A stretch of 64,000 bases of DNA from positions 18,805-82,804 of the forward strand of contig JAPLZK010000004.1 in the NCBI GenBank assembly GCA_026395055.1, given 5' to 3'. This document shows positions 6,486 to 7,128 of the stretch, piece after piece. The notes under the pieces were generated by a model, which saw only the letters and a program-made list of their open reading frames with translations, was not told the origin of the DNA and searched no databases. A program made the translations under genes and the position numbers. The DNA is from Candidatus Uhrbacteria bacterium. GTDB lineage: Bacteria; Patescibacteriota; Patescibacteriia; UBA9934; GWF2-40-263. Every line of letters begins with the position of its first letter. Position 1 is the stretch's first letter.

Positions 6486-6518
6486 AACCCTGATGTTGTA
6501 TCAGGGTTTTTTGTTTTG
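6486..6518 (+). terminator. Intrinsic terminator after the TrmB gene
   Basis: AACCCTGAT...ATCAGGGTT hairpin plus a T-run. Confidence 0.7.
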
Positions 6519-6551
6519 AAAAAAGAAAACAACATCCGAGAGTGGATGTTG
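6515..6551 (-). terminator. Intrinsic terminator for a leftward transcript (3' end of candidate ncRNA)
   Basis: On the minus strand, CAACATCC-actctc-GGATGTTG hairpin followed by TTTTCTTTTTTC. Confidence 0.6.
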
Positions 6552-7128
6552 CGAGAGAGTCTGTGTGGCTGTGATCGTTTGGGCATCACTTGGATGCGTT
6601 GCAGTTCGGGAACCTACCAGAAGGTGACGCGTGACACCGCATACGACAAGTCGTTTCCCGCGTGAGCGAGGCGTGCTTGCCGTTGCGGGCCGCGTTCTGA
6701 TTACCCTGCCATAGGGCACCTCCGGATTAGGGTTTGAACCGCTCCTTCGAATTCGCGTTCGCAGATTGCGCGAGCGAAGTCGACGTGTTGCGCGCATGGG
6801 ATCCATGCAAGACAGCTTGAGCGCGCAGCGAGGATTGTGGTGTCTTCGGACTTGATGTCATCGGACCACAATCGTTGCAATCACTTGGCATGGCGGTTGA
6901 CCTCTTCCTTCGGTATGCCTTTTGCAAGGCGGTTGTTTCGCACTGTCCAATTGACTAGATACCAGCTCTGCGTGTGCAGAGGCAGATGTTTGTGTGGGCT
7001 AGCCGTTCATACGGCCTCCTACGTCGAGGATCGGACTTCGATCTCGATAGATTTGCAAGAGCTTTGTTGAAAACCAGCTTCACCAACCCGTTGGTATGGC
7101 AGTCCGTTGTTAAGCGAACGCGGTACTC
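6515..7128 (-). ncRNA. Candidate ~610-nt non-coding RNA (leftward from twin promoter to terminator)
   Basis: Promoter-like box at 7130-7154 (minus) and an intrinsic terminator at 6515-6551; no credible ORF. A T-loop-like GGTTCAAACCC is in the sense strand at about 6730-6740. Confidence 0.4.

Follow-up and report, generated by a model that had tools for sequence, protein, structure and literature searches.

The 64-kb stretch of Candidatus Uhrbacteria DNA analyzed here (the window) contains one interval, 6480-8688, that stands out in a crude map of open reading frames (ORFs) as by far its largest gap without ORFs of at least 110 amino acids; the second-largest ORF-free gap contains the RNase P RNA. 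The interval is bordered by a gene of the TrmB helix-turn-helix (HTH) family (5740-6480) and by the gene for Ro60. Two divergent RNAs are predicted within it, a leftward RNA on the minus strand, convergent with the TrmB-like gene, and a rightward RNA on the plus strand, directly upstream of Ro60 (Table 1). The leftward RNA, which an earlier sequence-only reading had proposed as a non-coding RNA transcribed from one of two twin promoters to an intrinsic terminator, is the main subject of this work. Bacteria of the candidate phyla radiation (CPR) have genomes of about 1 Mb, and this lineage keeps approximately 2.3 kb of ORF-free DNA with two divergent RNAs at the Ro60 locus despite its small genome.

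Relatives of the locus were gathered through the Ro60 protein by a scan of representative genomes, a protein search, an alignment-driven scan of metagenomes, and look-ups of individual contigs. After removal of duplicates, at least 13 independent loci had a readable TrmB-proximal gap, and all counts per locus given below refer to these 13. The closest relative, L001, encodes a Ro60 protein with 93% identity to that of the window, and identities in the other loci range from 92% down to 52%. The same order recurs across loci, being IleRS, TrmB, the ORF-free gap with its two divergent RNAs, and Ro60.

The leftward transcription unit

Both ends of the leftward unit are marked by signals recovered in a consensus scan and recurring in the homologs, in agreement with the promoter and minus-strand terminator first proposed. 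At the 5' end lies a near-consensus sigma-70-type promoter that matches 10 of 12 consensus positions, with a 17-nt spacer between TTGACA and TAGAGT, the latter belonging to an extended -10 element of the form TG-n-TAGAGT. From the promoter spacing, the probable start site is G7119-G7121. The twin promoter is also present, as a plus-strand copy that forms a 29-nt inverted repeat with the minus-strand promoter (7128-7156 versus 7271-7299). Since the TTGACA-N14-TGATA(G) architecture is found at other gene starts of the genome, both would be ordinary strong promoters. At the 3' end, the terminator, read base by base, consists of GCAACATCC-ACTCTC-GGATGTTGT (6552-6529) followed by UUUUCUUUUUU, and its stem shows a compensatory change from CAACAUCC/GGAUGUUG to CACCC/GGGUG. 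This terminator and a second one lie in tandem ahead of the convergent TrmB-like gene, and there is no regulated gene downstream on the same strand. A minus-strand RNA that terminates just before the TrmB stop codon is found in all 13 loci, and 12 of them have a minus-strand promoter of the window type; none was identified in L020. Judged from this conservation, the predicted leftward unit is an independent promoter-to-terminator transcription unit kept across the clade, and within the sampling its family occurs in Candidatus Uhrbacteria-like CPR bacteria only.

Sequence comparison makes it very probable that the minus strand from 7121 to 6519 is a genuine RNA gene. As noted before, the interval is GC-rich, with a GC content of 0.58 at 6601-6900 versus approximately 0.43-0.45 in the flanking genes. 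The leftward RNA is about 77% identical to that of L001, with patchy conservation, the Ro60 gene being 89% identical. All three codon positions have similar numbers of substitutions (58/64/56 against L001 and 66/76/56 against L018), without 3-nt periodicity, and the indels that separate the window from these two relatives are mostly 1, 2, or 4 nt long, i.e., not multiples of three. Apart from a 54-codon ORF considered below, no ORF of 40 or more amino acids on either strand is intact in both L001 and L018, frameshifts or stops being found instead. Moreover, no ORF of note in the leftward RNA has a match in Pfam.

The claim that the region has no ORF with a credible start has to be withdrawn, because it contains two mini-ORFs with a perfect Shine-Dalgarno (SD) sequence and AUG, as well as a 54-codon ORF with the SD-like tract GAAGGAAGAGGU. 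The latter is open in the window, L001, and L018, where its length differs by multiples of three, as a small-protein gene would require. However, its ratio of non-synonymous to synonymous changes (pN/pS) is 0.9-1.1 among these three, it lacks codon periodicity, its best-conserved stretch differs by non-synonymous changes only, and the other ten loci lack it or have unrelated ORFs instead. A conserved protein was rejected on the pN/pS of about 1, the absence elsewhere, and the lack of a Pfam match. The stop of this ORF lies just before the SD sequence of the second mini-ORF (mini-ORF B). Also, unrelated SD-led ORFs of 31-63 codons occur at the equivalent position in L012, L005, and L008, and translation of the central domain, rather than the peptide of the 54-codon ORF, might be conserved.

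The description of the leftward RNA as hairpin-rich and structured agrees with its folding. Compared with dinucleotide shuffles, the minus strand gives a significant z of -3.2, whereas the plus strand does not (z -1.4). An RNAalifold consensus of the three closest RNAs (window, L001, and L018) contains 149 pairs, with 92.6% of the cells paired. Both sides have changed in 13 of these pairs, versus 6.2 +/- 2.0 in shuffles (0 of 500 reach 13) and 1-6 with slid partners. The individually convincing helices are the hairpin ahead of the first mini-ORF (mini-ORF A), the central hairpin, the hairpin of the second AUG, the 3' domain, and the terminator. In the central hairpin, for example, GAUUGUGGU/ACCACAAUC becomes AUCGCUGGU/ACCGCGAU in relatives, and the GGUCCGA motif located there is not conserved. 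RNAalifold energy and covariation were dropped as a means of strand assignment, the reverse complement scoring equally well, so the strand is assigned from the promoter, the terminator, and the mini-ORFs.

Outside the closest group, the scaffold changes extensively. The core that is nearly invariant in the window, L001, and L018 is unalignable in L005, and the window-group RNAs could not be aligned with the distant homologs over their whole length, only the modules being alignable. Distant homologs share the GCAAGCAC and CUCGCYGCGCG blocks of the 3' domain. The length of the RNA goes from approximately 250-360 nt (L020, L008, and L024) up to 715 nt (L005). Its 5' and 3' ends are unpaired in both the minimum free energy and the consensus folds.

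Mini-ORFs led by Shine-Dalgarno sequences

All homologs share one feature, which consists of an SD sequence (AGGAGG, GGAGG, or AAGGAGG), a gap of 4-8 nt, AUG (rarely GUG), two to four codons, and a stop. By sequence comparison, these putative SD-led mini-ORFs, of the form M-x-G(-x)(-x)-stop, are the only universally conserved parts of the leftward RNA. Two modules per RNA are usual; L005 has three, and L020, the shortest, has one. In the window, the module of mini-ORF A is AGGAGG-ccgt-AUG AAC GGC UAG (7020-6999) and that of mini-ORF B is GGAGG-tgccct-AUG GCA GGG UAA (6723-6701). Counterparts of mini-ORF A occur in 12 of the 13 loci and would encode MHG, MNG, MNGA, MVG, MFG, VNG, MGGC, MGGGC, MGGIG, or MWGTH; L020 has mini-ORF B but not A. 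For mini-ORF B, the counterparts are MNG, MGGL, MGGA, MGGS, and MGH/VGH, and the distance to the terminator downstream of it is 4-150 nt in all loci.

In a uniform scan, the 13 RNAs contain 27 SD-led ORFs of 3-5 codons, versus 0.7 in composition-matched shuffles and 1 on the antisense strands. Elsewhere in the window, on both strands, only three such mini-ORFs are found, all of them within protein genes. The SD-led ATG ORFs of at most five codons recorded outside the RNA, M-R-stop and M-R-S-stop at 35070 and 27038 (both minus strand), lie in protein-coding genes and are regarded as background. An exact-pattern scan of IMG/VR for the MGGA module gave zero matches. SD 5-mers are enriched 3.7-fold in the leftward RNAs (42 versus 11.3 expected), and their complements are depleted (6 versus 11.2). 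A CsrA sponge of the CsrB/RsmZ type was considered and rejected, the GGA trinucleotide being unenriched (99 versus 87 expected) and the enrichment limited to full SD 5-mers.

The variation among the mini-ORFs is of the translation type, as in decoded sequence. The third codon specifies Gly in 25 of the 27, and all four GGN codons occur. The stops comprise 15 UAA, 8 UGA, and 4 UAG, and mini-ORFs of 3, 4, and 5 codons alike stay in frame with their stop. The peptide MGGA is found in six loci, with five distinct sequences because L022 and L023 are the same here, as AUG GG(U/A) GGC GC(G/U/A/C) U(A/G)A. Likewise, MGH is written AUG GGU CAC UAG in one locus and GUG GGA CAC UGA in another. Hence the mini-ORFs are likely to be under selection at the level of translation; if translated, they would be among the smallest conserved cistrons known to us. 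Window-group RNAs have the AUG in a hairpin loop closed by 4-6 bp, and the stem covaries, with the variants CCCU/AGGG, GCCG/CGGC, GGCC/GGCC, and GCGC/GCGC. This hairpin is not universal, being missing, for example, at mini-ORF B of L022.

With regard to the non-coding character first attributed to this RNA, the attribution holds insofar as no protein-sized ORF is conserved, but it does not extend to the SD-led ORFs of 3-5 codons, whose conservation is of the translation type. Conservation of a short ORF with synonymous bias had been named in advance as an argument against a non-coding RNA, and the mini-ORFs touch on that argument, although no ORF of protein size is kept.

Possible roles of the leftward RNA

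The suggestion of a novel large RNA is in line with the database searches. With Rfam models, cmscan found nothing relevant at gathering score in the whole window or in the 13 homologous loci, nor at E<=10 over 6300-8900, where Y-type and large-RNA models were also without a match. In particular, OLE, GOLLD, ROOL, HEARO, and raiA gave no match at gathering score or at E<10. The leftward RNA resembles these families in being large, GC-rich, and rich in hairpins, with its own promoter and terminator and a size near that of OLE; it differs from them in having no Rfam match, and we know of no conserved SD-led mini-ORFs in any of them. Dual-function small RNAs, such as SgrS/SgrT, RNAIII/hld, and SR1/SR1P, are also structured regulatory RNAs that carry an ORF. 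However, their ORFs encode functional peptides of approximately 26-45 amino acids, whereas those of the leftward RNA have 3-5 codons and come two per RNA. The bar minigenes of phage lambda, which are two-codon ORFs, share the arrangement of SD, AUG, one to few codons, and stop on an otherwise non-protein-coding transcript. Nonetheless, they are phage-borne, short, unstructured, and toxic only when peptidyl-tRNA hydrolase is limiting, whereas the leftward RNA is encoded on a chromosome, is kept across a clade of bacteria, and is highly structured.

The bacterial Y RNAs YrlA, YrlB, and Yrn1 also belong to RNA genes in a Ro60 locus, beside rsr/Ro60. YrlA mimics tRNA (PMC4201824), and the leftward RNA would follow the same general logic of an RNA module imitating something that the translation machinery acts on, although it looks like an mRNA instead of a tRNA. 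Unlike these RNAs, it is divergent from Ro60 rather than co-directional, it has about 600 nt, and it lacks a conserved Ro60-binding helix or motif, a tRNA-like domain, and an Rfam match. A similar architecture is observed in leaders with upstream ORFs (uORFs), where a strong SD and an ORF of few codons occur in a structured RNA that ends at an intrinsic terminator. In the vmlR leader of Bacillus subtilis, a predicted three-codon uORF, MIN, is proposed as a ribosome-stalling sensor (PMC9226507), and the rli80/hflXr leader has a 14-codon ORF (PMC6310831). In contrast to these leaders, the leftward RNA has no downstream gene, carries two or three mini-ORFs on a scaffold of 250-700 nt, and shows an alternative antiterminator pairing in some homologs only. 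In the literature searched, neither RNAs at Ro60 loci of CPR bacteria nor conserved cistrons of 3-5 codons in a stand-alone structured RNA are described.

Because it lacks the testable hallmarks of Y RNAs, curated large-RNA families, tmRNA, CsrB-type sponges, and protein genes, the leftward RNA falls outside the known kinds and, on an entirely comparative basis with homologs all found through Ro60, is considered a previously undescribed family. Its conservation is unusual in that the scaffold drifts while two cistrons of 3-5 codons with canonical ribosome-binding sites stay fixed. The leftward RNA would then be a fast-evolving structured scaffold built around two fixed translation-initiation modules. 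Ribosomes, first as 30S and then as 70S, would bind the SD modules, whose AUG is often shown in a hairpin loop, make a peptide of three to five residues, and terminate while still near the SD. The occupancy by ribosomes, and not the peptide, would set the conformation or availability of the RNA, which would act as a high-occupancy ribosome-binding scaffold. Occupancy is preferred over the peptide because lineages differ in residue 2 and in the C-terminal residue, and because structured scaffold makes up about 95% of the RNA. With nothing downstream on the same strand, the output would be in trans or through the conformation or stability of the RNA itself.

A link to Ro60 is suggested by the divergent arrangement, since the fixed promoter spacing of 117-120 nt with a Y-like RNA directly upstream of Ro60 would imply co-regulation and a role in the surveillance by Ro60 and Y RNA. 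An output into Ro60-dependent RNA surveillance is speculative, the shared promoter region being its only basis. In such a scheme, the leftward RNA could sense translational status or, as an mRNA mimic, form the counterpart of the tRNA-mimicking YrlA. As an mRNA mimic, it would inform the Ro60 machinery of translational status or bring ribosomes to it, and this machinery would be fed by the poly-Y RNA of about 1.5 kb with its tandem modules, described below. Taken as a whole, with the proposed mechanism included, a new structured, ribosome-engaging RNA family at the Ro60 locus falls somewhat short of an even chance, and the mechanism that joins ribosome engagement to the Ro60 pathway is more tentative. 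The most specific version, in which the leftward RNA is an mRNA-mimic partner of Ro60 and Y RNA that parks ribosomes on two cistrons of 3-5 codons, is doubtful. If true, regulatory RNAs that engage ribosomes would form a new class, and the mimicry principle of YrlA would reach from tRNA to mRNA. If the mini-ORFs are translated, this RNA would stand alone and need ribosome engagement for its function. With the tandem Y-like modules next to it, the locus offers a tractable system of RNA plus Ro60 for asking how bacterial Ro60 connects to translation.

Several observations weigh against this proposal. Every locus was found through a Ro60 search, so the association with Ro60 is partly built in by ascertainment. 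The covariation comes from three close sequences, which also yielded the structure, and the RNAalifold energy and covariation are alike on both strands. Also, pairing in the AUG hairpins, instead of decoding, could underlie part of the conservation of GGN and UAA. Finally, the leftward RNA has no conserved Ro60-binding motif, and there is no downstream gene that a ribosome sensor could control in cis.

Among the alternatives, an unlikely one is a structural or protein-binding RNA in which the SD-AUG-GGN-stop elements are undecoded motifs, perhaps pairing with the 3' end of 16S rRNA or binding a protein. In agreement with this, the AUGs are located in loops of covarying hairpins with the SD partly in the stem, local helices covary, and there are conserved SD-like tracts without a start codon (GAAGGAAGAGGU and CGAAGGAGCGG). 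However, the in-frame stop is kept at 3, 4, or 5 codons, AUG is swapped with GUG and all three stops with one another, and MGGA and MGH vary at wobble positions only. Such start and stop swaps, frame keeping, and wobble variation are expected from decoding and not from pairing, and the hairpin is not universal, as at mini-ORF B of L022.

A second possibility retains translation and places the activity in the products, with fMet-x-Gly peptides or their peptidyl-tRNAs acting as signals or by sequestering tRNA in the manner of lambda bar. This would account for the conservation of MGGA and MGH at the amino-acid level within lineages and for the near-universal Gly at position 3. Against it, position 2 is N, H, A, V, F, G, or W and the C-terminus is G, A, L, S, C, or H between lineages, no modifying or export genes are conserved alongside, and about 95% of the RNA, including the invariant 85-nt core, would be left unexplained. 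Such a minigene RNA is quite unlikely.

An attenuator or antisense device, where ribosomes on mini-ORF B modulate the terminator and read-through produces an antisense RNA to the convergent TrmB-like gene, is improbable. It draws support from the compact homologs L012, L020, and L024, in which the stop of mini-ORF B is 4-10 nt from the terminator hairpin, and from L022, L023, and L008, in which a 9-bp alternative pairing of CGCGACUGC with GCAGUCGCG competes with the terminator; none was identified in the window copy. Moreover, three-codon uORFs are proposed to act in this way in ABCF leaders (PMC9226507). Nevertheless, about 150 nt separate the stop of mini-ORF B from the terminator in the window, and behind this terminator lies another, bidirectional one. 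Also, no gene lies downstream on the same strand, and mini-ORF A and the large scaffold are left unexplained.

The sequence-only reading had compared the leftward RNA to a Y RNA, and an oversized, Ro60-bound Y RNA that gates or tethers Ro60 would be very improbable. The characterized Y RNAs have 80-130 nt, and the Ro60-contact motifs are GGUCCGA and, in bacteria, GNCGAAN0-1G (Chen et al., PMC4201824). In favor of it are the position at the Ro60 locus, the single GGUCCGA and three GUCCGA of the window copy, versus 0.2 expected, and the potential of L001 and L018 to pair GGU(U)CGA with UCGACC on top of a covarying stem. Nonetheless, these motifs are not kept among the homologs, with counts in 10 leftward RNAs at chance and no positional conservation, and no Y_RNA or YrlA-type match is found in Rfam even at E<10. 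A covariance model (CM) of the Y-like modules of the locus itself matches the rightward transcript only, with no leftward match at E<=1. The length, about five times that of characterized Y RNAs (PMC4201824), is beyond the bacterial range, as had been recognized at the outset. The T-loop-like GGTTCAAACCC is present at 6740-6730, as described, but becomes GGTACTAACCT and GGTTCCAACCT in the closest relatives; with this change and with ARAGORN finding no tRNA or tmRNA in the leftward RNA, a T-loop or tRNA-like domain was rejected. Since only the rightward transcript carries Y-like modules, on the plus strand upstream of Ro60, the analogy with Y RNAs belongs to that transcript. The weakest explanation, that this RNA is a small-protein mRNA (with the 54-codon ORF) or a pseudogene in decay, is, like the oversized Y RNA, contradicted by direct tests and is highly improbable.

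The rightward RNA and other features of the locus

The rightward RNA ends at a strong terminator (8755-8788), conserved and located 44 nt ahead of the Ro60 start codon. It contains three paralogous modules of the form GG(G/A)CCG-N5-7-GGGGUUUCAUC, of which two to three are Y-RNA-like, with the closing stem, the bulged C, and a motif of the GNCGAAN0-1G type ahead of GGGGUUUCAUC. For module 2 (7905-8045), the predicted fold (z = -5.9) consists of the closing stem, one bulged C, and a G-A/U-C step after it. This arrangement, 5'-GGGC(C)GA-3' with 5'-UCGCCC-3', resembles the layout of the helix, likewise bulged, that Ro60 binds in Y RNAs. Covariation of the closing stem is seen when modules and genomes are compared, one pair being U-A in five and C-G in four. 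A covariance model of the modules (R1) recovers 19 copies at E<=1 (E<0.01 for 17) in 12 loci; all are on the plus strand upstream of Ro60, and none occurs in the leftward RNAs or elsewhere in the window. No Rfam family matches the rightward RNA, and an exact-pattern scan of IMG/VR for the Y-like motif gave zero matches. From these sequence features, it looks like a new tandem poly-Y RNA of about 1.5 kb and may be a more direct partner of Ro60 than the leftward RNA. This arrangement recalls Mycobacterium smegmatis, in which a single precursor upstream of rsr is cleaved to give YrlA and YrlB (PMC4201824).

In seven loci, the spacer that separates the promoters measures 117-120 nt. It carries a partly palindromic motif, AAATTTAGC(T/A)A(A/T), approximately 30 nt upstream of the plus-strand -35 element, which is kept in 6 of the 11 spacers examined, with near-variants in the rest. 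This motif may be an operator, perhaps one bound by the neighboring TrmB-like regulator.

Table 1. Predicted features of the leftward RNA and of the surrounding Ro60 locus in the window.
Feature	Positions	Strand	Basis or remark
Leftward RNA body, ~600 nt	6519..7121	-	Promoter to terminator; fold z -3.2; covariation in three close homologs
-35 hexamer TTGACA of leftward promoter	7148..7153	-	Consensus scan; kept in homologous loci
Extended -10, TG-A-TAGAGT	7125..7133	-	Consensus scan and base-by-base reading
Hairpin CGAGAUCG-AAGUC-CGAU-C-CUCG, just 5' of mini-ORF A	7025..7046	-	Compensatory U-A to C-G in L001 and L018
Shine-Dalgarno AGGAGG of mini-ORF A	7015..7020	-	Sequence scan
Mini-ORF A (M-N-G)	6999..7010	-	AUG in loop of GGCCGU/ACGGCU hairpin
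54-codon ORF with SD-like GAAGGAAGAGGU tract	6727..6891	-	Open in window, L001, and L018; probably not a protein gene
Central hairpin GAUUGUGGU...ACCACAAUC, then GGUCCGAUG	6834..6873	-	Stem covaries in L001 and L018
Near-invariant core of nested hairpins, GCGCGCUCAAGC...CAUGCGCGCAACACGUCGA...GCGCAAUCUGCGAACGCGA.UUCGAAGGAGCGGU	6741..6826	-	Conserved only in window, L001, and L018
Shine-Dalgarno GGAGG of mini-ORF B	6719..6723	-	Sequence scan
Mini-ORF B (M-A-G)	6701..6712	-	AUG in loop of covarying hairpin
3' domain hairpin ACGGCAAG-CACG-CCUCGC...GCGGG-AAACGA-CUUGUCGU	6643..6683	-	Covariation; blocks in distant homologs
Intrinsic terminator: 9-bp stem, 6-nt loop, U-run	6519..6552	-	Scan; homologs with compensatory CACCC...GGGUG
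Bidirectional terminator of convergent TrmB-like gene; back-stop for leftward RNA	6485..6509	.	Scan
AT-rich spacer between divergent promoters, 120 nt, with AAATTTAGCWAW motif	7154..7273	.	Conserved
Twin promoter of rightward RNA	7274..7302	+	29-nt inverted repeat
Rightward ORF-free RNA, ~1.5 kb	7303..8788	+	Own promoter; conserved strong terminator
Putative Y-like module 1	7782-7900	+	Paralogous repeat
Y-RNA-like module 2: 13-bp closing stem, bulged C, GGGC(C)GA/UCGCCC	7902..8047	+	CM 119 bits
Y-RNA-like module 3	8168..8271	+	CM 75 bits
Ro60 gene, TROVE and vWA domains	8832..10385	+	ATG at 8832 is the true start, behind an AGGAGG ribosome-binding site

A 16-nt sequence, CCACACAAAC(A/G)UC(U/C)GC, which was detected as an inverted repeat, occurs in both RNAs, at 6982-6997 directly after mini-ORF A in the leftward RNA and at 7718-7733 in the rightward one. 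This similarity is probably due to chance, because the leftward RNA of L001 does not keep it. In L005 (80% Ro60 identity), the rightward RNA has an extra insertion of about 1 kb (4575-5535) with at least three copies of a repeat of the GCGGCCA-N2-3-GAGGGGATCG type, which is absent from the window. In relatives with 52-54% Ro60 identity, the interval between TrmB and Ro60 extends to 4-5.4 kb, with a GC content of 0.58-0.61 (L002, 4586-9961; L015, 842-4822; L025, 860-4737) and few credible genes called, a sign that the RNAs there may be much larger or more numerous.

The small genome has several HTH paralogs of the TrmB family, at 5740-6480 and 15944-16738 in the window and at 341-706 and 6352-7077 in L001, one of them being always convergent with the leftward RNA. 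Finally, the class A RNase P RNA of the window (42048-42602, minus strand) gives a match of 555 nt to a model of 367 positions and must therefore contain large insertions.

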